64,000 bases of DNA, taken from an uncultured delta proteobacterium (GTDB taxonomy: Bacteria; Desulfobacterota; Binatia; UBA9968). The notes below the pieces were generated by a model, which saw only the letters and a list, made by a program, of their open reading frames with translations, was not told the origin of the DNA and did no database searches. The position numbers and the translations under genes are program-made. Positions 1-64,000 of this stretch are shown here, in pieces (position 1 is the stretch's first letter; every line of letters starts with the position of its first letter). The stretch is from NCBI GenBank assembly GCA_963816145.1, contig CAWFJP010000030.1, forward strand, positions 32,001-96,000, written 5' to 3'.

Positions 1-310
1 AGTTCATGGTGCCGAACTCCGCCGCCGCCTTCGCCACCGCGGCGCCGCCCTCGGGCGTAATGGTTTGCAGCGAACCAATGGGCGCCATCATGACCGGGAT
101 CCGCAGCTTCTGTCCGAGAAACGTCGTCGACGTGTCGACTTTGGAAACGTCCACCAGCACCCGTGGCCGTAAACCCAAACTGTCGAAGCCCAACCGGTTG
201 CGCCGCATGGTGGTTTCCGACTCCGCGCCGCCGGTGAGATAATCCCACACATCCTGAGGCAGATTGCGATGCGCCGCCTGAATAATTTCTTGATTGCTGA
301 CGTAGTCCAT
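1..310 (-). CDS. FMN-dependent alpha-hydroxy acid oxidase/dehydrogenase (LldD/glycolate oxidase family), 5' part; runs off window start
   Basis: Hand translation from ATG at 310: MDYVSNQEIIQAAHRNLPQDVWDYLTGGAESETTMRRNR...LRPRVLVDVSKVDTSTTFLGQKLRIPVMMAPIG, the typical family N-terminus; AAGGAG RBS upstream. Not in the supplied ORF track. Confidence 0.9.
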   Translation of the reverse strand, partial: MDYVSNQEIIQAAHRNLPQDVWDYLTGGAESETTMRRNRLGFDSLGLRPRVLVDVSKVDTSTTFLGQKLRIPVMMAPIGSLQTITPEGGAAVAKAAAEFGTMN

Positions 311-446
311 GGGGTTTTTCTCCTTTTGTTCGCGATCAATGGTTGCGAGGTAAATCGAACCGCACACTATCGAACCCTGTAGCGGGCTGTCAAATCTATT
401 TACCCCTCAAACACAAAAGGGCGGCTCATCGCCTCCCCTTTCTAAA

Positions 447-476
447 CTTGAATTTTTGAACCCTTGAACCTTGAAC
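447..476. repeat. Tandem TTGAA(C) oligomer x4
   Basis: cttgaatttttgaacccttgaaccttgaac; unit spacing 8,8,7; same pattern at 10509-10537. Confidence 0.6.
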
Positions 477-479
477 GAG

Positions 480-1044
480 TTATTTACAGTTCATCGCCGG
501 CTTTTAAACCTGATGCAGCGTCGTGCCGCTGCTGCCGCCCTGGGTCGTGCCGCCGTCGGTCAAGTGAATCAGTCCTTTGACAAACGCCATGCGCGTCACG
601 CCGTGCACGGGGATCGGCATATTCTCCAAAACCGGTGCCTCAACTGTCGGTAACAGGATTGTAGTAGGCGTGATCGGGATAGATGCCGTAGGAATGGTCC
701 GGATTGCCCTCGCCGCCGAACTAATGGAAACAGCCGTTGGCAGCGATCCCATTGACGCCGCCGCGCGGCCGCAACATCGAGCGCCGTTTCGACCATTGAT
801 TGGTTTGGGGATCGAAAACTTCGACGACATCGGTGCGCTCGCTGCGGAAACCGCGTTCAAGGCGCCCGACGACGACATAAATCTTGCCGTCGAGCTCAGC
901 CACCGCGATCTCCGAATTGGCCACCGGCACCGTCGCCAACAAGCTCCAGCCGTCGTACATCGGCTTGCGCTCTTGCAAGGCACACCCGGTAACGGCGAAT
1001 AGCAATATCACAAGTGATGCGAATCTGCCAGTTTGTGAAACCAT
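480..1044 (-). pseudogene. Kelch-repeat lipoprotein pseudogene
   Basis: Lipobox AVTGC and Kelch motifs (ELDGKIYVV, VEVFDPQTNQW, PRGGVNGIAANGCFH). The frame continues past TAG (721-723) as FGGEGNPDHSYGIYPDHAYYNPVTDS, then TGA (640-642), a frameshift into MPIPVHGVT...GGSSGTTLHQV, TAA (504-506), and KPAMNCK*. Confidence 0.75.
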
Positions 1045-31993: not shown

Positions 31994-32476
31994 ATGAACA
32001 AACAAATTCAATTCACGCTCAACGGAAAATCCGTTAGCCGCGAAGTGCCAACACACCGGCTCCTGCTCGATCTGCTGCGCGATGACATCGGCATTACCGG
32101 CACCAAGGAAGGCTGCGGCACCGGTGATTGCGGCGCCTGCACCGTCTATCTCAACGGCAAGCCAGTCAACTCCTGTCTGGTCCTGTCCGGAGAGCTCGAC
32201 GGCGCGAACATTGTGACAATCGAAGGATTGCGAATCGGTCCCGAGCTGCACCCGGTGCAACAAGCCTTCGTGCAGGACGGCGGCGCCCAGTGCGGCTACT
32301 GCACGCCGGGGATGTTGATGATGTCCAAAGCGCTGCTCGATGAGAATCCCAATCCTACGGAAGAAGAAATACGCTATGCCCTCTCCGGCAACCTGTGCCG
32401 CTGCACCGGCTATGCGAAGATCGTCCAGGCGGTCCAAGACGCGGCGGCGATGCTAAGGAGTAAACCCGTTTCATAG
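31994..32476 (+). CDS. Xanthine dehydrogenase family 2x[2Fe-2S] small subunit
   Basis: GCGTGDCGACTV, NSC, QCGYCTPG, NLCRCTGY. Confidence 0.96.
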   Translation: MNKQIQFTLNGKSVSREVPTHRLLLDLLRDDIGITGTKEGCGTGDCGACTVYLNGKPVNSCLVLSGELDGANIVTIEGLRIGPELHPVQQAFVQDGGAQCGYCTPGMLMMSKALLDENPNPTEEEIRYALSGNLCRCTGYAKIVQAVQDAAAMLRSKPVS

Positions 32477-52559: not shown

Positions 52560-53681
52560 TTAACCATATCTTCGCTGCTCGACGATCACGGGGGCAGCAA
52601 GAACAGCTTGTGCCGGAAAACTCATGAGTACGCGGGTCCCGGAGCCAGACTTGCTGGTAATGCTTAGTTTGCCGCCGACAAGGTCGGCCATACGGCGCGC
52701 CACCGTGAGACCGATGCCCAAGCCCGAAAACGCCCGCTGCGGCGAATTGTCCGCCTGATGGAACGGCTCGAAGATCGTGTCGATCTTGTTCTGCTCGATA
52801 CCGACTCCGGTATCGATGACTTCAAAATCTATTTGGGTACGGTCCATTGACGCGCTGACTTTGACCGCAATTTCGCCCGCAGAGGTGAACTTGACCGCGT
52901 TATTGAAAATGTTCTGAAACACCCGTTCGACCTTGGCGCGGTCGTTGATCATCGACAAATCGCCGTCGGCAAATTGAACGTTGAGTTGCAATCCTTTATC
53001 TCGGATCATGTTCTCGTGCCGTTTTACCGAATCATTGACGATCTCGCGGGCATCGAACTTCTCCACGTTAGCGCTGCTGTCACCGGCATTGAGCGACGTC
53101 ATCCACAACACATTATCGATCAACTCTAGCAGCTCTTCCGAATTGCGGTAGACAGTTTCAAGAACTTTCTGCTGCTCGTCGCTGAGCTTACCGATGACCT
53201 GGTTGAGGAGTAGATAGACAAAACCGACGACCACGCTGAGCGGCGTGCGCAGTTCATGGGAAACGTTGGAGAGAAAGTCGGACTTGACCTGGCGCAGCCT
53301 GGCCTTTGCAGTGCGTCGCTCCAAGCCGCGCCGGACCAAGGAAAGGATATGATTCACGTCGAAGGGCTTGGAGATGTAATCGAACGCGCCTAGGCGTAAT
53401 CCCTCGATAGCCGTGTCGAGCGATCCATAGCCGGTGATAATAATTGCCTCGATATCAGGATCGTGGGCTTTGACCTTCTCCAACACATTGATACCGCTCA
53501 AACCCGGCATCTTAAGATCCAAAGTCACTAGGTCCACGGGATACTGCTTGAGCATCTCGATCGCTTGCGCGCCCCGGTCGGCGACTAGCACATTGTAATA
53601 CGGGTTGAGAATCATCTTGAGCGATTCTCGCGGTCCCATCTCGTCATCGACTACCAGAATGTTCGGTTTGCTAGCATCCAT
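52560..53681 (-). CDS. Cytoplasmic REC-HisKA-HATPase hybrid kinase
   Basis: LVVDDE...VTLDLKMP...SKPF; SHELRTPL; NNAVKFT, DTGVG, GLGIGL. Confidence 0.95.
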   Translation of the reverse strand: MDASKPNILVVDDEMGPRESLKMILNPYYNVLVADRGAQAIEMLKQYPVDLVTLDLKMPGLSGINVLEKVKAHDPDIEAIIITGYGSLDTAIEGLRLGAFDYISKPFDVNHILSLVRRGLERRTAKARLRQVKSDFLSNVSHELRTPLSVVVGFVYLLLNQVIGKLSDEQQKVLETVYRNSEELLELIDNVLWMTSLNAGDSSANVEKFDAREIVNDSVKRHENMIRDKGLQLNVQFADGDLSMINDRAKVERVFQNIFNNAVKFTSAGEIAVKVSASMDRTQIDFEVIDTGVGIEQNKIDTIFEPFHQADNSPQRAFSGLGIGLTVARRMADLVGGKLSITSKSGSGTRVLMSFPAQAVLAAPVIVEQRRYG

Positions 53682-53695
53682 GCCGTTGCTAATTC

Positions 53696-53711
53696 AGCAA
53701 GGCGCATGCCA
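53696..53711 (-). promoter_or_regulatory. sigma54 -24/-12 promoter
   Basis: Minus strand TGGCATGCGCCTTGCT, 15 nt upstream of the hybrid kinase ATG. Confidence 0.65.
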
Positions 53712-53801
53712 CCGGGGAGATTAGGTAACGGCTTGAATTTAGATGGAATTTTTCAGCAAGGAAGGAGTGTTAAGGAAGCTGCGGGCAACAAAAATGTCCA
53801 A

Positions 53802-55211
53802 CTAGGACGATAATTTCACCTCTTCCTCATCGTCATCGTTGGGATTGTTAATCTTGAGTTTTTCGATCCGGTATTTGAGGATGCGCCGGCTGGTGTTGAG
53901 TATCATCGCCGCCTTGGTCTGGTTGAAGCCGGTGCGCTGCAGGGCCTTGACGATCAACTCGCGCTCGAACTCGTCGACGGCGTCGCTCAGCGGCCGCGAC
54001 CCGCTCAACACATCCTCTTTGAGCGTCGCGGTTTGATCCGTCGAGCGCATGCTCGGCGGCAAATCGCGCAGCGTGACGGTTTCCTGCGGTGTCAATATCG
54101 TCAAGCGCTCGATTAAATTTTCCAGCTCGCGAACATTACCAGGCCAAGGGTAAGACATGAAGAAATCCACGACTTCGGGCGACAGGGTTTTCATGGCGAT
54201 GGAATGTTCCTGGGCTTTCAGGCGCAAGAAATGGTCGAGCAATAATGCGATATCTTCACGGCGCTCGCGCAGCGGCGGCAGAAATAAAGCAACGACATTC
54301 AACCGGTAAAAGAGATCCGGCCGGAACTCGCCGTTCTTGGCCATCTGCTCCAGATCGCGATTGCTCGCGGCGACAATGCGCACGTCCACTTTGATTTCGT
54401 CCGTGCCACCGAGACGACTGAAGGTCTCTTGTTCGATGGCGCGCAGGAATTTCGCCTGGACGCCGAGATCGAGTTCGCCGATCTCATCGAGAAAAAATGT
54501 TCCGCCGTGGGCGAGTTCGAAACGGCCGATCTTTTTCTGCGACGCGTTGGTGAAGGCACCACGCTCATATCCGAACAACTCACTTTCCATCAAGTTTTCC
54601 GGCAAGGCCGCGCAATTGACAACCACAAAAGGTTTGGAGCGCCGGTCGCTATTGTAATGAATCGCCCTGGCGATGAGCTCCTTGCCGGTGCCGCTTTCGC
54701 CAGTAATCAACACCGTGCTTTTTTTCGCCGCCACCATGCTCACTGCCTTGAAGACATCGGTGATTTGCTTGGACTTGCCGACGATGAAGTCAATGCCGTA
54801 TTTGCGGCCGACTTCCTCCTTCAAGGTTTCTAACTCGCGCGACAATTGCACTTTTTCAAGCGCATGCTCGACGCGCAGACGAAGCTCGTCCACGTCGAAG
54901 GGCTTAGTCACATAATCGAAAGCGCCGGTTCCCTTGGCGGTAAAAGCCGTCCTGGCGGTATTGATACCGGTCAGCATAATCACCTGGCAATCGGGATGGA
55001 TGGATTTGATCTGCTTGAGCACACCGAGGCCATCGGCGCCGGGCATCATGATATCCAGCAGCACCGCATCAGGCTTATCCTCGCTAACCTTTTGAAGCGC
55101 TTCGTCGGCTGACGCGGCTTCCAAGACACGGTAAGTCTTGTTGAAGACCATTTGCAACGATTGGCGAACTCCCGCTTCGTCGTCCACCACCAATAATAAG
55201 GGCTGGCTCAT
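53802..55211 (-). CDS. NtrC/AtoC-family sigma54-dependent response regulator
   Basis: REC (LLDIMMP), GESGTGKE, ESELFG, GAFTNA, LDEIGE, WPGNVREL, Fis HTH. Confidence 0.96.
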   Translation of the reverse strand: MSQPLLLVVDDEAGVRQSLQMVFNKTYRVLEAASADEALQKVSEDKPDAVLLDIMMPGADGLGVLKQIKSIHPDCQVIMLTGINTARTAFTAKGTGAFDYVTKPFDVDELRLRVEHALEKVQLSRELETLKEEVGRKYGIDFIVGKSKQITDVFKAVSMVAAKKSTVLITGESGTGKELIARAIHYNSDRRSKPFVVVNCAALPENLMESELFGYERGAFTNASQKKIGRFELAHGGTFFLDEIGELDLGVQAKFLRAIEQETFSRLGGTDEIKVDVRIVAASNRDLEQMAKNGEFRPDLFYRLNVVALFLPPLRERREDIALLLDHFLRLKAQEHSIAMKTLSPEVVDFFMSYPWPGNVRELENLIERLTILTPQETVTLRDLPPSMRSTDQTATLKEDVLSGSRPLSDAVDEFERELIVKALQRTGFNQTKAAMILNTSRRILKYRIEKLKINNPNDDDEEEVKLSS

Positions 55212-55212
55212 G

Positions 55213-57078
55213 TCAGTTTTCTTTTCCGTGCTCAACAATCGGGAACTCCATTCTTACAATGTCTTTTTCCGCGTCGGATCGATCCGCGATAAAGCGTCCG
55301 CCATTTTTTTCCACCAGTTGTTTGGCCAACAGCACACGTAGCGGCAGGAGCCCCTCCTCGGGTTGTGAACCGCTATTGCCCAGGTAATGGGAAACCGATC
55401 CCATGCGGGCCCCTTCACGGAGAGACGTGATCGCCAGGACGCCCGGTTGGCTAACGTCGATTTCAATCTCGCTGCCCGTCTTGGCTTCCGCCGTGACTGC
55501 CAAAAGCACGTTTTTGAGTATATAAATCAAATGCTTCTCGTCCGAGCGTATCCGCTCGGCCCGGCCGTTTTTCTTCCAATCGAAGCGAGTTTGCCGCTTG
55601 CTGCATTGGGAACTAATTTCGCCGAGCACGTCTCTGGTTTTTTCCTCGAGCGCAATCGCGCTTTGGCGCGGCTCAGTGAAGTCGGCGAACTCGATCATCA
55701 CTTCCAATAAATCGTCCATCCGTTCGATATCGCCGCCGACCACCTCTTGGAAGCGCGAGCGAAAGTTTTCATCCTGATAACGCTCGCCGAGTAGCTGCGC
55801 GAACGTCTTGATCGTAACCATCGGATTCTTGAACTCATGGGCGAGTTCATGAATCACCAGGTTTAAGTCAACCGATTTGGCATGGCCATTTGATTGCGCC
55901 ACAAGTGCCGGGCGCGAGCCGCCAACATCACTATCAGCACCTGCTGGCGGCACAAACTCGACTAATTCGCTGGCATCGATCGCCTGAATTTCACCACCAA
56001 AATCGAACACCAAATCAGCGGCATCGATCTGGTCCTTAGAACGTAGGGCCATCGTCCGCGCTACGACCGTTTCCAACTCACGCAGATTGCCGAACCATAG
56101 GTACTTGGACAACCGCTCATGGGCCGCCGGTGAAAACGTCGGTTCCCGCACCCCCAATGATCGCGCTAACCGTCGGGCAAAGCTCTGGGCTAATGCCGGG
56201 ATATCCGTCGCGCGCTCGCGTAACGGCGACAAATGCAGCGATAGAACCGCCAATTGGTAATAGAGCCCTTCGGGAAACTCACCACGATAGACCCGCGCCA
56301 ATAGGTCGGCGTTTGCCGTGCTCAGCAAGCGCAGTTCGGTATGCTGTTGGGCCTCGGCGATATACTCCGCCAGCCGCGTCTGCGCCGCGGCTTCACACCG
56401 GTCGAGATTCTCGACGAGCAGTGTGATCGGAGTCAGGTTCGCTGACACGGTCGACCAGAGTTCCTTACGTTTCTCCGCCAGGTAATCCACGTCTATGACC
56501 GCGGCGTTGACCGCGACACAGATGCCGCCTTGCTGCCGATGAATCACCGACGCGACTTGAAGCTGGCCGCAGCCCAGTTCGCCATGAATTAGCAAAGGCA
56601 ATTGGGTCGCCGCAAACCGCTGCACAAGACTTGCCGCGCTACGGCTTAAGAAAGGAAACTCGAGGTAGCGCGAGTCATCTTCGCGCTTGGCCGGCTCCAA
56701 CCATCCCTGCCGTGCGGGAACTCGTTTGCCCCGCGTCAGCAGCTGACCGACTCTTTCCTGCAGCTCGTAGGGATTGAACGGCTTGGTCAAGCATTCTACA
56801 GAATCTGAACTCTCGATCACCCTTGCCGTTGATTTCGACTCGACGAGAAACAGCACCGCAAACGGCAGCCGGCTCGCCAACTGCACTAATCTTCCGGTTT
56901 CCAAACCATCGTATGGCGAAACGCCAAGAATTAACAGGTCGACATCTTCAGAGGCATCGGCCGGTGGCAACCCCTTGGTCCCAAGTGAGCGCTTTGAGAC
57001 TGCGAACTCCCTACTTAGAATCAGAGCCAGTGTTTCCCTGACAACTTCGGATTCATCAATGACTAAGATTCGCTTCAT
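55213..57078 (-). CDS. Pseudo-receiver + degenerate sigma54 AAA+ + HisKA + degenerate HATPase fusion
   Basis: DLLILG (no Asp), GELGCGQ (no Walker A Lys), no GAFTGA, WFGNLREL; intact AHEFKNP; no G boxes. Confidence 0.8.
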   Translation of the reverse strand: MKRILVIDESEVVRETLALILSREFAVSKRSLGTKGLPPADASEDVDLLILGVSPYDGLETGRLVQLASRLPFAVLFLVESKSTARVIESSDSVECLTKPFNPYELQERVGQLLTRGKRVPARQGWLEPAKREDDSRYLEFPFLSRSAASLVQRFAATQLPLLIHGELGCGQLQVASVIHRQQGGICVAVNAAVIDVDYLAEKRKELWSTVSANLTPITLLVENLDRCEAAAQTRLAEYIAEAQQHTELRLLSTANADLLARVYRGEFPEGLYYQLAVLSLHLSPLRERATDIPALAQSFARRLARSLGVREPTFSPAAHERLSKYLWFGNLRELETVVARTMALRSKDQIDAADLVFDFGGEIQAIDASELVEFVPPAGADSDVGGSRPALVAQSNGHAKSVDLNLVIHELAHEFKNPMVTIKTFAQLLGERYQDENFRSRFQEVVGGDIERMDDLLEVMIEFADFTEPRQSAIALEEKTRDVLGEISSQCSKRQTRFDWKKNGRAERIRSDEKHLIYILKNVLLAVTAEAKTGSEIEIDVSQPGVLAITSLREGARMGSVSHYLGNSGSQPEEGLLPLRVLLAKQLVEKNGGRFIADRSDAEKDIVRMEFPIVEHGKEN

Positions 57079-58568
57079 TATCGTGCGCACGGCCATTCGC
57101 TATCGGGCGTATCGGTGCGCCGATGGGCACTTGGACAAAGAATGAAGTTCCTTGCCCCACCGTACTTTCAACCGTGACATAACCGCCATGTTCCTGGACG
57201 ATCTGATGCGATACCGCGAGACCCAATCCGCTCCCCTCATCCTTGCTGGTGAAGAACGGGTCAAAAATATGCTCCAAATTTTCCGGCGGGATTCCGATAC
57301 CGTTATCGCGCACCTCAACTTGAACATACTCTTTAACCAGGTCAGCATTATTTCTGGCAGCGAGACGGGTAGAAATCGATATTGTGCCACCATCTTTCAT
57401 GGCCTGGATTGAGTTCAGAATGAGGTTCATAAATACCTGCTTCATCTGTTCTTTGTCAATCCACACCTTGGGCAGACTTGCGTCAAAATCCCGCTTTATC
57501 TCCACGTTCTTGTCCTTCGCCTGGGCCTCCAAGATTCGCGCGATATTATCAACCACATCGCTGATGTTTTCGGGAGCAACATTGGGCTTAGACGGGCGTG
57601 CGAAGCTCAAAAGGTCGTTAATCAACCCGCAAATCCGGTCAACTTCCTTCAGCGCGAGTCCCTGAAAACCATTGCGAAACTCGGCATCGTCGTAACGCTC
57701 CGGCAAAAGCTGCGTAAACGTGCGAATCGCCACCAAAGGATTGCGAATCTCATGGGCAAGACCTGCCGTGAGTAGACCTAAAGAAGACATCCGATCGGCG
57801 CGCCTCAAGGTCACTTGCGATTGTTTGAGTTCCTGCTCCCGCCTGAACAAACGATCTGCCATCTGATCGAAGGCCTTGGCCAAGCTACCGATCTCGTCAT
57901 CACGGTTGATAGAAACCCGATGTTGTAAATCACCGTCCTCAATACGTTTAGCAGCCAACGTGAGCCGCTCAATAGGCTTTGGTCATTCTTTCTGCAATCA
58001 GATAGATAATCGCCAACCCCGCTAGAAATATGATGGAGGCAACGGCAACGGCCGTAAAAGTAACATTTCTGATATCGTTGAGTATCGGATCGAGATCAAA
58101 GCCTAGGCGGATCCCTCCAAGCTTATCGTTGCCCAGTCTGACTGGTTTGGATATGTCTAGAATTCGTTTGTCATAATCCAAGTCTACCTTGGTTGTCTCG
58201 TTGGACTTGATAATTTGCTCCCCCAGCTCGTCGGTGAATGTAGCAAATAACATCCTTTGATCAGGATGATAGTCACCGACAATTCGCCCATCCTTATCGA
58301 ATATATATGCGTAAGCCACGTTCGGAAGCGCCTTTGCCTCAGAGGCGATCGTTTCAAGCCGGTAAGTATCAAGTTTATACAGCGCCCCGCTTACACTCAG
58401 CTCCATCAAACTGATGCCAACCTTAGCCCTTTCGCCCATTTGCGCTAAGAGCAGGTTTCGCTGGGAACGAATCGTGAGAACGGTGAGCGCACCGACCGCG
58501 GCGAAATAAAAGAGCCCGGCAGCAAGAAAAACCTTGCGTTTGAGACTGAGTTTAATCTCCAAGCTCAT
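57056..58568 (-). pseudogene. Membrane HAMP sensor histidine kinase split by a +1 frameshift (or sequencing error)
   Basis: TM-sensor-TM half (57969-58568) and kinase half (57056-57958; AHEIRNP, NLILNS, DNGIG, GLGL). Removing one A at 57978-57980 gives MTKPIERLTLAAKRIEDGDL, an intact HAMP. Confidence 0.85.
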
Positions 58569-58667
58569 TGGTGAACAAGAATATCGGTGAGCTTAGCGGG
58601 GTTCCGCAGGGCTTAATCGACGAGACCAAGAGATAACGGTGACGCCCAATAATGTTAGGCGGCGCTG

Positions 58668-59591
58668 TTACCACAGATCAACTTCTTTACCAAGGTTTGA
58701 GAAGACATACTTTTCAACCTGTTTTAGTTGCTCCAATGAACCTGTTGGGACCTCGTCGAACTTTGTTGTGTTTTGAGATCTCTTGAGTACCCCCTGCCCT
58801 TCAGGATCTTTGTCCATGGTCAACAGGACTTCTTTAATTTCCTTTAAGAGTTTAGGATCAATGTCCCGTCGAAACGACACAAGATTCCTCGGCACCGCAA
58901 TGGTCGAGTCGAGAATTCGCAAACTCTCGCGAATTTCCGGCTTTAGACGGTCAAATTCCCTGTGGATTGTCGTCGCCGCATCGGCACGTCCAGTAATCAG
59001 AACATTCACCGCATTGCCATCGCTACCATAACTATAGCCTATCGTATCTGGTCGGACCGTTGTTCCGGGACTTTGAATATGCATTAATTTCAGTTTCTTT
59101 GCTTCGAGAAGCATTCGGGGAAGAACAGTAGCAGATGTTGAATGGGGCTCCTCGAATGCAATCACCTTTCCCATTAGGTCTGCAAGTGAATTGATCCCAC
59201 TGGCTTTCTTAACGACGATTAGACCCTTATAATCGGCCTCTCCATACTTCCACTGCCGCAAGAGAGGCAGCGCTCCCGCACGCTTCGCAAGTACCAATGT
59301 CGGTACGACACTATCATGGAATAGATCCACCTGTCCGTCGCGGAGCGCCTGTGCGAGAAGATGCAGTTTTTCGACTACAATTATCTTGCCTCCCGTGATA
59401 CCGAGCGGCGCTAGCTTCTTCGCCAAATAGTCAACAAATTCTTGGCGGTCCCGAATCGCTCTCACGGGATCATCGAAAACTCGCCCGAAAAATAACGGCT
59501 TCGCGTCACCGGCGAATAGTGGCGAACACCATGTAATTTGTGTTAGTGACAGCAACAACGCCAAACCGACAGAACGTTTTATCTTTTTCAC
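58668..59591 (-). CDS. PhnD-like phosphate/phosphite/phosphonate-binding protein (no transporter adjacent)
   Basis: Signal peptide, YKGLIVV, INSLADLMGKVIAF, HSTSA, VPRNLV. Confidence 0.85.
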   Translation of the reverse strand: MKKIKRSVGLALLLSLTQITWCSPLFAGDAKPLFFGRVFDDPVRAIRDRQEFVDYLAKKLAPLGITGGKIIVVEKLHLLAQALRDGQVDLFHDSVVPTLVLAKRAGALPLLRQWKYGEADYKGLIVVKKASGINSLADLMGKVIAFEEPHSTSATVLPRMLLEAKKLKLMHIQSPGTTVRPDTIGYSYGSDGNAVNVLITGRADAATTIHREFDRLKPEIRESLRILDSTIAVPRNLVSFRRDIDPKLLKEIKEVLLTMDKDPEGQGVLKRSQNTTKFDEVPTGSLEQLKQVEKYVFSNLGKEVDLW

Positions 59592-60148
59592 GATAAACTC
59601 CTTTTCTGACTGGCATCGAATGAGTATTGATTACAAGGGCATTGACTACACCAATTAATTAAAGCCCGATCCAACCACCACGGCGCGGACAAAAAATTCA
59701 CCACCCCCGGTTTTGAAACGACATTCTGCCTACGGTCCACTTAGCAAAAGCAATGGCTATTATAGGCTATCTAATCAGAATTGGCAAAAATTTAGACAGA
59801 TTCGCAATTTAGAGGGCGATTCCTCGATATTGTATCCGACCCACCTCGGCGGTCACCCAAAACCGTGGCCGGCGTAACACTGGACGCTTCTGGGGCGCAG
59901 AAAACGAGGCTTAACTGCCGTTATGATTGCTGTGAAGTGGCAGAGGTTATCCGGAATGAGAAGTAGATATGAATTGGAACGCCAACTCCCCAGACTGGCT
60001 CTGATTTCTAGGTCTTTGGAGCGTACAAAAGGAGCGATGGAACCAAATCAGAGTCCATCATAAGCAATCGGTGAAAGTTGCACCTGCGTCCGCTATCATT
60101 CGGCGTCCCGAATCAGAGCAAAGTCTTGAGATGGGCAACCCTATACGC

Positions 60149-61345
60149 CTACCGCGGAACCACCGTAGTCGTCCCGCTGTATGAAAGGATTGGGTCAGCA
60201 CGTTTCACTTCGGATTTGGACAACCGAAGGCAAGTTAGGACGGAAAGTAAAGTTAGGAGAGCCGCGAAATAGTATGCCGAACTGAACCCGAACGATTCGG
60301 CTAAAACACCCGAAACGAACACGCCGACGGGTTTGAAAATATTGCTGAGAGTCGTATACGTAGCCAGGTCTAAGGACGTTTTTTCCTCGCTGGCAAATTC
60401 CAACATCAAGTGATTGAAATAAACCATCGCCACACTAAATAAAATCATGTAGACGAAAACCCACGACAACAAGAAGAAAACGGATGTCGCGAACGACAAA
60501 GCGAGGCTCACTGGAATAAGCACCAAGCCACTAAACACAATAATCTTTCTGGGCTCCCATCCCAAGTTTACGAATTTCGAGAAAAACGTAACGATAACCC
60601 CCTGAACGACATATTCGGCCATTAGTACGGTACCCACAAATGCGGGAGCTGCCCCAATCATTTTCGTCAAGTAAACTGGCAGGACAACAACACCCCAGGC
60701 GTCGAGCGCTCCGTTTAGCAACCCAAATCCAAATCCCAGGGTTTTGATGCGCTCGTCCACGCCCCGCCATATTTTGAGCACTGGCAACTTAACCTGTTCA
60801 TGTAGATCAGGTAGAAAGCGCCAGGCTACAAGCGTTGAGAATCCGGTAAGTACCGCAAAGACGGCTAGCGTGTTTTCGATTGTGAGATATGCAATAAGCA
60901 GCCCGCCGCCGATCATCCCAACGCCCTTCGAAGCCTCTTTTAACCCTAGCATCATGTTGATGAGATGCCGTTGATTTCCCTTAGGTGAGAAATGCTTGAC
61001 GTATACGGCACTCATATCGGCCATGTATAGAAGGCCGCGAACAAACCTCTCAACGTAGATCAAGACCGGAATTGGCACCATGTACAAGAACGAAATCGCA
61101 CTGTGAATCGCCAAACCCGTAAGGAAGGTTTTTTTGTAACCCCAGCGATTCAACAACATTCCGATACCAAGTGGCGCGAAGATTTCGGCAAACTTGAACA
61201 AGAAGAAAAGAAAGGCAATCTCAGAAATCGACATCCCCGTAGCAGCGAAATACACGGGCACAACAACTCGAAGAGCTCCGTTAGTTAGCGCTTGGCTCCA
61301 ATAACCAAGTCCAACTATACCGATTGTTCGCTTATAGCTTGCCAT
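60149..61345 (-). CDS. MFS transporter, divergent ArsJ-like
   Basis: YWxxxLTxGALR, IAFLF, MSA..K, GxKxAxKGVG..GG.L, DxWxVVxLPVYL and SLD motifs recalled from ArsJ. Confidence 0.75.
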   Translation of the reverse strand: MASYKRTIGIVGLGYWSQALTNGALRVVVPVYFAATGMSISEIAFLFFLFKFAEIFAPLGIGMLLNRWGYKKTFLTGLAIHSAISFLYMVPIPVLIYVERFVRGLLYMADMSAVYVKHFSPKGNQRHLINMMLGLKEASKGVGMIGGGLLIAYLTIENTLAVFAVLTGFSTLVAWRFLPDLHEQVKLPVLKIWRGVDERIKTLGFGFGLLNGALDAWGVVVLPVYLTKMIGAAPAFVGTVLMAEYVVQGVIVTFFSKFVNLGWEPRKIIVFSGLVLIPVSLALSFATSVFFLLSWVFVYMILFSVAMVYFNHLMLEFASEEKTSLDLATYTTLSNIFKPVGVFVSGVLAESFGFSSAYYFAALLTLLSVLTCLRLSKSEVKRADPILSYSGTTTVVPR

Positions 61346-61375
61346 GATTTGGCAAAAGGGATTGGCTCTTGGTTT

Positions 61376-62215
61376 TTAAAGTCTCTCACTGTTGGCCATG
61401 TAGACATCGATTCTTGGACGAAAGAAACTAGCCTCTTTATGTCCTCGGAGCGGTCCCTCAAACAAGAACCCCATGCCTTCAACGTATTTTGAATAATTAG
61501 TTCGCCAAATTGGGTAGTGAGCCTCCAAGTCCTCAAGCCATACCGGTAATCTAGAGTGTGGGTATTTTAATTCCAGAATCGTTTTTTTCGATTTACCTGC
61601 GGGCTCCTGTACGGGATACTTCCACGAATCGTGTGAAAAAACATCGGCACTGACATGGTAAGATTGGATACCCGAATCGAGGCAAACCCGGTGGATCTCA
61701 TCTTGAAACGCTAGCCTTCGATAGGTTTGTAGCAGAACTGGCGCAATGCCCATCGTGAGGATGGTTTCCTGAGTTTCTCGGTACAAATCGGAAATGATCT
61801 TTGGCTCAAAGTCTTGATTATACCCCGTCACGCTCTTAACTACGTCTCGGCCGTTAAAAAAATCCGCAAGGTCCAGCCGCTTGATACGGAATCTCTTCTT
61901 TCGCCATCGATCTTTCTCTCGAATCTTAACTTCGACCCAATAATCAGATATCGGAATAGGAGATTCCCCGTAGCTTTCATAGGTCCGCAAGCGAACAAGG
62001 ATATGATGGCCACCGTTCAACAGAGCATAACGGGTTAAATCAAAGTCTCGATTATCAAAATAAACGCTTCCCACACACGTGATTGCGTATATCGGCTGAA
62101 GTCCAACCTTATACAGATATAGGCTCAACTCACGCCAAACACCGGCAATCTCACCATCACCGACAGCTAATTGATAGTTCCTTTCAATGCGATCTTGATA
62201 TATTGGTCCGTGCAT
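61376..62215 (-). CDS. VTC-domain (CYTH/triphosphate tunnel) protein
   Basis: RIERNY, SVYFD, VRLRTY, WVEVK, KKR, YRRLAF, RVCLD, ILELK, YSKY. Confidence 0.82.
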   Translation of the reverse strand: MHGPIYQDRIERNYQLAVGDGEIAGVWRELSLYLYKVGLQPIYAITCVGSVYFDNRDFDLTRYALLNGGHHILVRLRTYESYGESPIPISDYWVEVKIREKDRWRKKRFRIKRLDLADFFNGRDVVKSVTGYNQDFEPKIISDLYRETQETILTMGIAPVLLQTYRRLAFQDEIHRVCLDSGIQSYHVSADVFSHDSWKYPVQEPAGKSKKTILELKYPHSRLPVWLEDLEAHYPIWRTNYSKYVEGMGFLFEGPLRGHKEASFFRPRIDVYMANSERL

Positions 62216-63364
62216 TTGAGGACTCCGCGGCTACCACTCAGTGGACTTCAGTCGATTCCACTTTTGAGACTTATGAAACCAAACTCCAAGAGTGCTCACC
62301 CTTGCTGTATTATCAAGGCGCTTGTCGGCCGTTCGCTTTGGAAATTGGACTTTTCGCCAACATGCCTAATACTTCACTCTAAGCCTCGAACTAGCTCCCA
62401 CGCCCGTAATGCTCATACCCTTCATCATCGAAAGAGCTTTCACGGAAATAGATGGAACTCTATATAATAGTTGGCAATCCTAGTCAAGAATATAATATAG
62501 ATGGTAATTAACTGAAAAATCGGGAGTTTTGTGGCCAGGTTGAGAATCCAACCAATCAGGCGATTCGTATCGGACGAAACTATGTTTGTTACGTAACCGC
62601 GATCAAACCGGGGAAAGAGGTAAAGTGATACACAAAACGTGACAACGCCGATGTCCGTTGGACAAATATTTCGTGGTGCTCGATTGAAAAACTAAATTAA
62701 CGCTCGACCTTCGGATTGAAAGGAATTAGAATAAAAAGACTTTAAGAATTACTTTCTGCGCGGGAAAAACCGAAAAGCTCTTAGTTATTGGATTTCACAG
62801 TACATTCACTACTAGAAGCGAGGGTACAACATCCTTAGAGATGCCTGGTCGCACATTCCGCTCAACGCGCCAACGTTTTTTTAGCACCACCGCTCTTCTC
62901 CGCCATCGCCCAGGCATCCCGCAGGGTCACCGAGCGATTAAATACTTTCATCTTGAGCGTCGACTCCCAATCGATGTGCCAAGAATCACTTCACTCGTTG
63001 AGAACATTCGTTGGGTATCGAGAGATTCGCATCAGCTATCGCAAGACGCGCTGCGGCTATCCCAAGTTGTGCGAATCGATCAATCCGCTGGGCAAACTGG
63101 CTTGGCATAAACTCATCCGGAAGCGAAGTCCGAAAATTCCCCAGCACTCGGGCAGTCAAAAGGTGTTGTATTGAAAGACGTGATCTTCTTAACTCCCGAC
63201 CTGCCCTACTTGAGGGAATCCCAGAACCGGCCCTCGCCTATCCCAATCCACGATAAGACTCCAAGACCGATAATGACCACGCGACGGTTGCACCCTGGGC
63301 GAGGTGTTTCACACTTTGTCAATTCCCAGTCCACCTTGGTCCACCAATTCACGTAATCCCCTAC

Positions 63365-63555
63365 CTACCCGCCGTTGTCTGAAGCCAAGTCGGAGTTTTT
63401 CATCAACCACTCGTCGACCAAGGTCTTCTTAAATCGCCATTGATTGCCCACTCTGAATGCAGGAATTTTTTCTGAGTTACCGAGCGGTAAACCGTGAATT
63501 TATCCACTTTTAAGTACCGGGCAACCTGTTCTGCCGTTAGCAAATTTCCGTGCAT
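63365..63555 (-). pseudogene. Excisionase-like HTH_17 DNA-binding protein with a frameshift in an A6 run
   Basis: LLTAEQVARYLKVDKFTVYR; adding one A at 63466-63471 gives KKIPAFRVGNQWRFKKTLVDEWL. Confidence 0.8.
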
Positions 63556-63612
63556 TGGCGCCTTCAGTATGGCAATATCTGGCACTATTAAAAACTATCC
63601 TTGGAGATTCCT

Positions 63613-64000
63613 ATGCTGAGAAAATTTCTACTTTTCGCTATCTGGATCATCTTGGACGTCGAGAAATCTGCGATTGACAATGAGGCTCTCGGGGGCGGAT
63701 TCGCCATTCCGCACCAGAGTGCACGAGGGCTAGGACTTTCAAATGCGATGACAGCCGGCGTCAACGAACCGTCAGCTGTTTACTATAACCCTGCGGCGCT
63801 GAGCGAAGTTCAAGGTAATATGTTGCTGGCGAATGGCAGTTATATCAACGTAATCAGCGACGTCGAGAACAGCGGCAGAAAGTCGGTGAACAAGCATGAC
63901 GACAACTTTCTAGCGACTCTCTTCGGCAATTATCATATCCCAGGAAGCGATTTTACCATCGGCATGGGCGCATACACACCATTCGGGCTAGCGACTACTT
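63613..64000 (+). CDS. FadL/TodX/OmpP1 outer-membrane transporter, 5' part; runs off window end
   Basis: Hand translation GGFAIPHQSARGLGLSNAMTAGVNEPSAVYYNPAAL...GMGAYTPFGLAT; GGAG RBS. Confidence 0.88.
   Translation, partial: MLRKFLLFAIWIILDVEKSAIDNEALGGGFAIPHQSARGLGLSNAMTAGVNEPSAVYYNPAALSEVQGNMLLANGSYINVISDVENSGRKSVNKHDDNFLATLFGNYHIPGSDFTIGMGAYTPFGLATT

Follow-up and report, generated by a model that had tools for sequence, protein, structure and literature searches.

Yeast Vtc4, the gapdh-arsJ gene pair and the AioXSR-type sensory systems are among the described systems closest to the locus considered here, a pair of genes for a VTC-domain enzyme and a transporter of the major facilitator superfamily (MFS) from an uncultured delta proteobacterium (GTDB lineage Bacteria; Desulfobacterota; Binatia; UBA9968). 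The pair lies in a stretch of 64,000 nucleotides (nt), hereafter the window, which comprises positions 32,001 to 96,000 of contig CAWFJP010000030.1 (assembly GCA_963816145.1). For Vtc4, excerpts of a cryo-EM preprint describe K200 and eight further residues as triphosphate/Mn ligands required for polyphosphate synthesis, and state that Vtc2 and Vtc3, unlike the active Vtc4, lack K458. In the gapdh-arsJ pair, an arsenate resistance system, the gene of a cytoplasmic enzyme is followed by that of an MFS protein, ArsJ, which the abstracts of the ArsJ papers describe as an exporter, with 1-arseno-3-phosphoglycerate as its established substrate, and which is the sole characterised relative of the transporter studied here. 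Bacterial VTC-domain proteins are also encoded as stand-alone proteins beside a membrane protein, in sets with DUF4956 and CotH. Finally, the binder-dependent sensor systems, which include AioXSR, ArxXSR, ArrXSR and the XAC2383-XAC2382 pair, combine a periplasmic binding protein of the PhnD fold with a sensor kinase and with a regulator of the AtoC/NtrC type that acts at an RpoN promoter, an arrangement that is also found downstream of the pair.

The enzyme of the window shares with the tunnel domain of yeast Vtc4 its fold and eight of nine ligands, including the K458 equivalent, and is encoded beside a membrane protein. However, it is soluble, lacks both an SPX domain and a transmembrane domain of its own, has an MFS protein rather than a Vtc1-type channel as partner, and holds Asn at the K200 position. 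With gapdh-arsJ, the locus has in common the gene order, an MFS protein of the same broad family, and the GALR (transmembrane helix 1, TM1), K...KG.G (TM5) and D.W motifs, although the partner enzyme is a VTC protein instead of GAPDH and no arsenic context was found. With the VTC-DUF4956-CotH sets it shares the stand-alone VTC-domain protein beside a membrane protein, whereas a control set from the same phylum (genome G181) consists of VTC, a thymidylate-kinase-like protein, DUF4956 and CotH, its VTC protein being 28% identical to that of the window. Contrary to AioXSR-type systems, the sigma-54 target is here another regulator-kinase and not an enzyme operon, and the system has an S-T-S binding pocket and an extra degenerate AAA+/HisKA protein. 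A full-text literature search returned nothing on the VTC-MFS pairing, nor any account of what VTC proteins do in bacteria. To our knowledge, no machinery has been described by which bacteria export polyphosphate or handle it in the periplasm. The pair represents a compact candidate, combining a soluble enzyme with a nearly full Vtc4 active site and a transporter whose family includes just one characterised protein. The reading put forward here, to which a probability of about 40% is given, is that both proteins form a coupled enzyme-transporter unit for condensed phosphate, which would probably export its compound while a linked sensor reads outside the cytoplasm; the make-up of the locus, the folds, the conserved residues and the gene order are observed, and the substrate class, the direction of transport and the link to the sensor are inferred.

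The VTC-domain enzyme and its ArsJ-like partner

The first gene of the pair (61376..62215, minus strand) encodes a Vtc4-like triphosphate tunnel enzyme of 279 residues, in which VTC (PF09359; 87.8 bits against a cut-off of 23) is the sole Pfam domain. Its AlphaFold model, built with 35 relatives in the alignment (predicted local distance difference test, pLDDT, 87), contains no membrane helices and matches the tunnel domain of yeast Vtc4 over its full length, both in Foldseek (template modelling score of 0.71 to entry 3g3r) and in VIA-align, where residues 8..275 superpose on Vtc4 195..480 (Z 22.9, root-mean-square deviation 2.9, 246 residues). Among solved structures, Vtc4 and Vtc2 come first, with Z 21-23 over 244-250 aligned residues, all Vtc2 and Vtc4 entries falling at Z 19-23, in contrast to the hydrolase-type tunnel enzymes ygiF, SaTTM, AtTTM3, the class IV cyclases and ThTPase, which reach Z values of at most 14.

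An alignment of the family profile to Vtc4 entry 3g3q (E 6.9e-14) places R75, R77, K97 and Y165 of the window protein at Vtc4 R264, R266, K281 and Y359, and R167, E215, S242 and K243 at R361, E426, S457 and K458, which accounts for eight of the nine triphosphate/Mn residues. All eight are invariant in the 35 relatives with the exception of S242, which is replaced by L or V in some of them. The ninth residue falls in strand 1, outside this profile alignment. Since the structural alignments begin with model residue 8 or 9 on Vtc4 195 or 196, Asn13 is placed at Vtc4 K200, and one of the nine ligands is lost. Asn13 belongs to the ERNY motif (residues 11-14) of the N-terminus MHGPIYQDRIERNY, so that the replacement of the usual ExKY by ERNY, pointed out in the preliminary description of this DNA, does affect a catalytic-site lysine.

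The VTC proteins with Asn at this position form a single clade (support 99/99), nested among sequences that, outgroups included, carry Lys, and judging by this tree the substitution is a derived change restricted to that clade. The loss extends to three basic residues, which changed jointly in the clade (Lys13 to Asn, Arg104 to Trp, and Arg/Lys239 to Thr), and positions 13, 104 and 239 separate all 27 Asn-type from all 34 Lys-type sequences. A loss of this kind may point to a substrate or product with less negative charge. Because the remaining tunnel residues are invariant, we infer that the members of the clade would be active enzymes with a changed substrate or product; and as the K200-type Lys has become Asn and two further basic residues have been lost, their chemistry probably differs from long-chain polyphosphate synthesis of the Vtc4 type. 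This natural K-to-N variant, together with the two other lost basic residues, provides a built-in comparison for substrate change in tunnel enzymes. The window protein is the only VTC match in the whole genome (completeness 99.47%).

The second gene (60149..61345, minus strand) lies in the same orientation after a gap of 30 nt (61346-61375), in agreement with the gene arrangement initially reported, and encodes an MFS transporter of 398 residues (MFS_1, 83.8 bits). Its best NCBIfam match is MFS_ArsJ (NF033734; 105.1 bits over model positions 4-391 of 392), an equivalog with a curated cut-off of 400 bits, far above the score of the window protein. ArsJ is the top NCBIfam match of all the family members tested (38/38; best E 1.4e-31), none of them near the cut-off, and no ArsJ above this cut-off was found in the whole genome. 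A true ArsJ from control genome G226 (571 bits), encoded directly downstream of a GAPDH gene, is 25% identical to the window MFS in BLASTP. The stretches YW..LT.GALR, G.K.A.KG.G...GG and D.W.VV.LPV.L align between the two proteins, and an Arg in TM1, two Lys in TM5 and the D.W motif are common to both. Thus, the ArsJ motifs noticed in the preliminary description are real, and the term ArsJ-like is justified by the nearest family but not as an identification, given the score and the identity to true ArsJ. By these comparisons, the transporter belongs to a separate family that has ArsJ as its nearest curated one and is itself no ArsJ. The MFS phylogeny that had been proposed as a check sets the family and the MFS of the distant genome G036 apart from ArsJ on a very long branch, although this tree includes a single ArsJ and adds little beyond the scores.

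Arg26 (helix 1) and Lys140 (helix 5) are invariant in the MFS family and Lys136 is nearly so; all three are present in ArsJ and would fit an anionic substrate. The structural model (pLDDT 84) has 12 helices, and its nearest solved folds are NorA, MdfA, VMAT, MFSD10 and YajR, MFS proteins of the efflux or antiport type, which is a weak hint that the transporter may work in one of these modes. A search of the PDB sequences with the MFS profile gave no match at E ≤0.01, and the ESM Atlas contained only generic MFS and VTC clusters, that of the MFS having 143 members labelled mostly Binatota. A predicted complex of the MFS and VTC proteins scored 0.00 in both runs, for which no controls were folded, a result that speaks as little against binding as in favour of it.

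The association between both genes is strongly conserved, as the preliminary description had asked of a genuine pair. A scan of metagenome contigs with the VTC family alignment yielded 80 loci (numbered L), whose neighbouring genes were identified by tblastn. Among the 65 with at least 300 nt downstream of the VTC gene, 62 have the MFS gene directly downstream, mostly after 8-35 nt; once the VTC proteins are clustered, adjacency is found in 48/49 clusters at 90% identity and 25/26 at 80%. The remaining three loci are L056 and L068, both lacking an MFS gene, and L079, in which a second VTC gene stands in between. Close orthologues occur in two of the 401 genomes sampled from the phylum of the window and in 2/301 of a second sample, which was centred on the genome of locus L003 and gave the same contigs, so that L003 is assigned to this phylum. 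A single-protein scan of genome contigs returned one locus, so that the distribution of the family over named genomes is poorly sampled; the unverified labels that submitters gave to the database relatives include Binatia, Deltaproteobacteria, Eisenbacteria, Gammaproteobacteria and Verrucomicrobia. Since soil and wetland metagenomes commonly contain this family, its chemistry may matter for phosphorus cycling in these environments. Contigs of public soil and wetland runs cover the window pair, those of independent soil runs with 0-1 differences; a 1427-nt contig of run X1, possibly the source sample, is identical over 60179-61605. No RNA run containing the pair is listed among the public ones.

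The pairing recurs in the distant genome G036, also from the phylum of the window, where two tandem VTC genes with full ligand sets (30-32% identical to the window protein) precede an ArsJ-like MFS gene (36%). This tandem arrangement is seen in two loci, L079:1729-4298 and L095 (G036:C113):921-4028; the first VTC copy of L079 holds Asn at the K281 position, and the other three copies keep every ligand. In L087 and L061, the VTC and MFS genes are followed by one for a PEP-utilizers_C protein. Genes of this kind, inserted after the pair on the same strand, are found at L074 (6866-8212) and at L087 (11001-12452)/L061. Sensor genes are absent from the 7.7 kb that follow the pair in L087, and the sequence of L061 stops about 1.1 kb after the MFS gene. 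A CysN/CysC-CysD pair (sulfate activation) lies on the opposite strand in L057 (11091-13831) and L068 (4690-7451), the latter being one of the loci without MFS.

The operon downstream of the pair

The preliminary description took the two genes for a self-contained module, a view that does not survive the comparison of their surroundings, since the conserved gene order indicates that the pair is the head of a seven-gene operon. The VTC and MFS genes are followed by those of a PhnD-type binding protein, a Cache-domain sensor kinase, a degenerate AAA+/kinase protein and an NtrC-type regulator, and then, behind a sigma-54 promoter, by that of a regulator-kinase hybrid. The binder follows the MFS in 38/42 loci and the sensor kinase follows the binder in 34 of 35; the degenerate AAA+/HisKA protein comes next in 18/19, the NtrC-type regulator after it in 12/12, and the receiver-kinase hybrid last in 11/11. 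The whole row is also present in genome G291 and in the metagenome-assembled genome locus L003.

The binder (58668..59591, minus strand) is a periplasmic substrate-binding protein of the PhnD family, with 307 residues, an N-terminal signal-like segment and a PF12974 score of 155 bits. It is separated from the MFS gene by 557 nt, in which a sigma-70-like promoter was matched at 59759..59787 on the minus strand (11 of 12 positions); this is a consensus match only, in a region with eight such matches against 5.3 expected. The best solved relative of the binder is 5ub3 (87 bits), which a table in PMC10942540 lists as XAC2383 of Xanthomonas citri, followed by PtxB (38.6 bits) and ArrX (34.4 bits). 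Its pocket motif is S-T-S, as in XAC2383, PtxB and PhnD, and this motif is present in 41/41 of the binder homologues examined; ArrX has S-F-S. XAC2383 reportedly binds phosphate-containing ligands. In AioX, an Asn (Asn162) stands between the pocket serines (S-N-S) according to PMC5908839, and AioX is not among the sequence matches of the binder at E ≤0.01. The comparison with arsenic-type pockets, which in AioX also include Cys106, covered the S-x-S position. The binder, the kinase and the sigma-54 cascade together probably monitor a phosphorus oxyanion outside the cytoplasm, and the ligand of this sensor is accessible through binding assays.

The gene of the sensor kinase (sCache-HAMP-HisKA-HATPase; 57056..58568, minus strand) is split in the window into two open reading frames, 57969-58568 and 57056-57958, by a one-base frameshift near 57975-57981, within the stretch 57969-57981, where a short run of A has an extra base (ACCAAAGCC in the window, ACGAAGCC in L012). 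The kinase is a single open reading frame of about 500 codons in L003, and both of its parts are found in tandem in 26/26 loci. Since the two public contigs that cover the site, from runs X1 and X4, are one base shorter at 57981, the gene is probably not dead, and the frameshift would stem from faulty assembly or from variation between strains. The next protein (55213..57096, minus strand; 627 residues) consists of a weakly matched receiver, a degenerate AAA+ domain of the sigma-54 activator type, an AAA lid and a HisKA domain. Its Walker A region reads GELGCGQ, without lysine, and it has no DNA-binding domain; in its overall make-up the protein resembles a pseudo-activator joined to the core of a kinase.

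The NtrC-type sigma-54 activator (REC-AAA+-HTH_8; 53802..55238, minus strand) gives 236 bits to Sigma54_activat. Just past its stop codon, at 53786..53799 on the minus strand, lies a degenerate copy of a palindrome that is a candidate activator site; in relatives, the palindrome GGACAAATTTGTCC is kept about 100 nt upstream of the sigma-54 promoter, with an AT-rich stretch in between. A genome-wide scan for two patterns of this palindrome gave three and two matches, none of them near the cluster. The promoter itself, TGGCATGCGCCTTGCT (53696..53711, minus strand; one mismatch), precedes the gene of the receiver-HisKA-HATPase hybrid (52560..53681, minus strand), the final gene of the cluster, and an element of this kind lies 28-54 nt before the start codon of the hybrid gene in 12/15 loci. 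As the only sigma-54 promoter of the cluster precedes this last gene, the cascade would drive a further regulator, which suggests that the NtrC-type protein turns on another kinase. Matches to the sigma-54 element before other genes are rare (FadL 0/24, binder 0/47, sensor kinase 0/39, MFS 3/68). A sigma-54 promoter for the pair itself was considered and rejected: loose matches, with up to three mismatches, occur in 13/69 loci at scattered positions, and there is none in the window. The genome holds 46 exact sigma-54 consensus sites.

Proposed function and competing explanations

In the proposed unit for condensed phosphate, the cytoplasmic tunnel enzyme would bind or make a tri- or polyphosphate-type anhydride, the ArsJ-related anion transporter of the inner membrane would carry the compound of the enzyme, most likely outwards, and the PhnD-type binder, the Cache kinase and the sigma-54 (NtrC) cascade would monitor a phosphorus oxyanion outside the cytoplasm. 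A phosphorus anhydride or oxyanion is favoured because three parts of the system point to it independently, namely the tunnel enzyme, the ArsJ-related carrier and a binder similar to PhnD, PtxB and XAC2383. A more specific version would have a soluble Vtc4-like polymerase and the MFS export polyphosphate or a short chain to the periplasm, where binder and kinase read its level and drive the sigma-54 cascade. Such a make-export-and-sense loop, a bacterial counterpart of the VTC complex assembled from different parts, is regarded as quite unlikely.

Several observations weigh against the proposed unit. The K200 equivalent is Asn in the window protein and in 27 of 61 distinct full-length relatives (Lys in 34/61), and the consulted source reports that K200A reduces polyphosphate in yeast. 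The genome encodes two PPK1 proteins, so polyphosphate synthesis is available independently of the VTC enzyme. A FadL-type outer-membrane channel, a protein for hydrophobic compounds, is encoded upstream in divergent orientation in 18/47 loci, and its link to condensed phosphate is unexplained. The only sigma-54 promoter of the cluster stands before another regulator and not before the pair. Besides, no fused VTC-MFS protein or longer form appeared among 722 candidates, although the lack of a fusion is weak evidence. Lastly, the trees of both proteins are incongruent, the Asn/Lys label requiring five changes on the MFS tree and one on the VTC tree. The MFS tree is deeply divided into two groups, one about 50% and the other about 70-87% identical to the window MFS, and this division does not follow the Asn/Lys split of the VTC proteins, which suggests that one of the genes in the cluster was exchanged or that rates have been very uneven.

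The same components could be arranged in the opposite direction. An MFS that takes up a condensed or organic phosphate sensed by the binder, with a tunnel enzyme that hydrolyses it to release phosphate and a FadL protein that aids the passage of an amphipathic form through the outer membrane, would be in line with the fact that most of the characterised tunnel enzymes among the structural matches are triphosphatases, with the invariant Glu (E11) that strand 1 keeps in an R-x-E-x-K/N pattern, and with the resemblance of an outer-membrane channel, a periplasmic binder, an inner-membrane carrier and a cytoplasmic enzyme to an uptake route. However, the fold is much nearer to Vtc4 and Vtc2 than to the hydrolases, as the Z values above indicate, the only characterised relative of the MFS exports according to the ArsJ abstracts, and FadL accompanies a minority of the loci, which makes import and hydrolysis unlikely. 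A purely regulatory role is about as doubtful. The enzyme would in that case make or read an internal phosphate signal, and the MFS would be a co-sensor that feeds the multi-kinase sigma-54 cascade rather than a bulk transporter. Regulators make up five of the seven conserved genes, no metabolic gene is conserved in the cluster, and the gene behind the only sigma-54 promoter, in the window as well as in 12/15 loci, is that of one more regulator-kinase, all of which agree with an accessory of signalling; the retention of the VTC-MFS pair in L087, whose 7.7 kb downstream hold no sensor genes, and the strict, enzyme-like conservation of the tunnel residues do not.

Arsenate resistance through an unstable arsenate anhydride, made by the tunnel enzyme and expelled by the ArsJ-like MFS, had been raised in the preliminary description and now appears improbable. 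Although no curated family is nearer to the MFS than ArsJ, the solved relatives of the binder include ArrX (34 bits), and the layout of binder, kinase and sigma-54 regulator is like that published for AioXSR and ArxXSR, the MFS scores 105 bits against the cut-off of 400 and is only a 25% match to true ArsJ. Neither a GAPDH gene nor any ars gene lies nearby, and the binder is far nearer to XAC2383 (87 bits), with S-T-S in place of the S-F-S of ArrX or the S-N-S reported for AioX. The absence of GAPDH beside the pair had been noted correctly, as no Gp_dh domain is found among the cluster genes or in the flanks, and the same is true for DUF4956 and CotH: neither PF16316 nor PF08757 is matched anywhere in the genome, at its completeness of 99.47%. 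The idea that the VTC and MFS genes are mere neighbours with no common function is very improbable: the incongruent trees and the two loci with VTC and without MFS (L056 and L068) would fit it, but adjacency holds in 62/65 loci and 25/26 clusters at 80% identity, and the pairing recurs in the distant G036.

Upstream region and flanking genes

Upstream of the VTC gene lies about 1.2 kb of non-coding DNA (62216..63402), up to the remnant of an HTH gene described below. In relatives, the spacing between the FadL and VTC genes is only 300-450 nt. The non-coding DNA of the window contains an 82-nt stretch (62893-62974), possibly a small repeat element, of which an 84% identical copy lies immediately beyond the FadL gene (C30:96998-97079) and which is found again in L012 and L055; metagenome contigs end at 62893 and 62952. 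An Rfam scan of 58000-64000 gave no match at E ≤1.

The remnant, at 63403..63585 on the minus strand within the stretch 63386-63585, derives from a small excisionase-type HTH_17 gene (22.8 bits) and is frameshifted, consisting of two tblastn segments in different frames. Contigs of runs X1 and X2 read as the window does, and in one contig of run X3 a G is added at 63461. An intact HTH_17 gene for 64-72 residues is found directly before the VTC start in 22/65 loci. The divergent FadL/TodX gene begins at 63601 on the plus strand, its 5' part filling 63601..64000 and the remainder extending past the window end; the full protein has 439 residues and matches PF03349 with 229.6 bits (L010:7602-8921). 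FadL was rejected as a core member of the system, because it is present in 18 of the 47 loci with room upstream, and both the FadL and the HTH_17 genes are, by their distribution, accessory.

Beyond FadL, glnS and gltX adjoin the FadL/VTC region in the contig of the window (L010:8992-12220, just beyond the window end), as they do in G291, L003, L046, L057, L062 and L087. This neighbourhood is unusually stable, although the VTC proteins encoded there are only 47-68% identical, and the shared glnS/gltX flank therefore favours descent within the lineage over frequent transfer.

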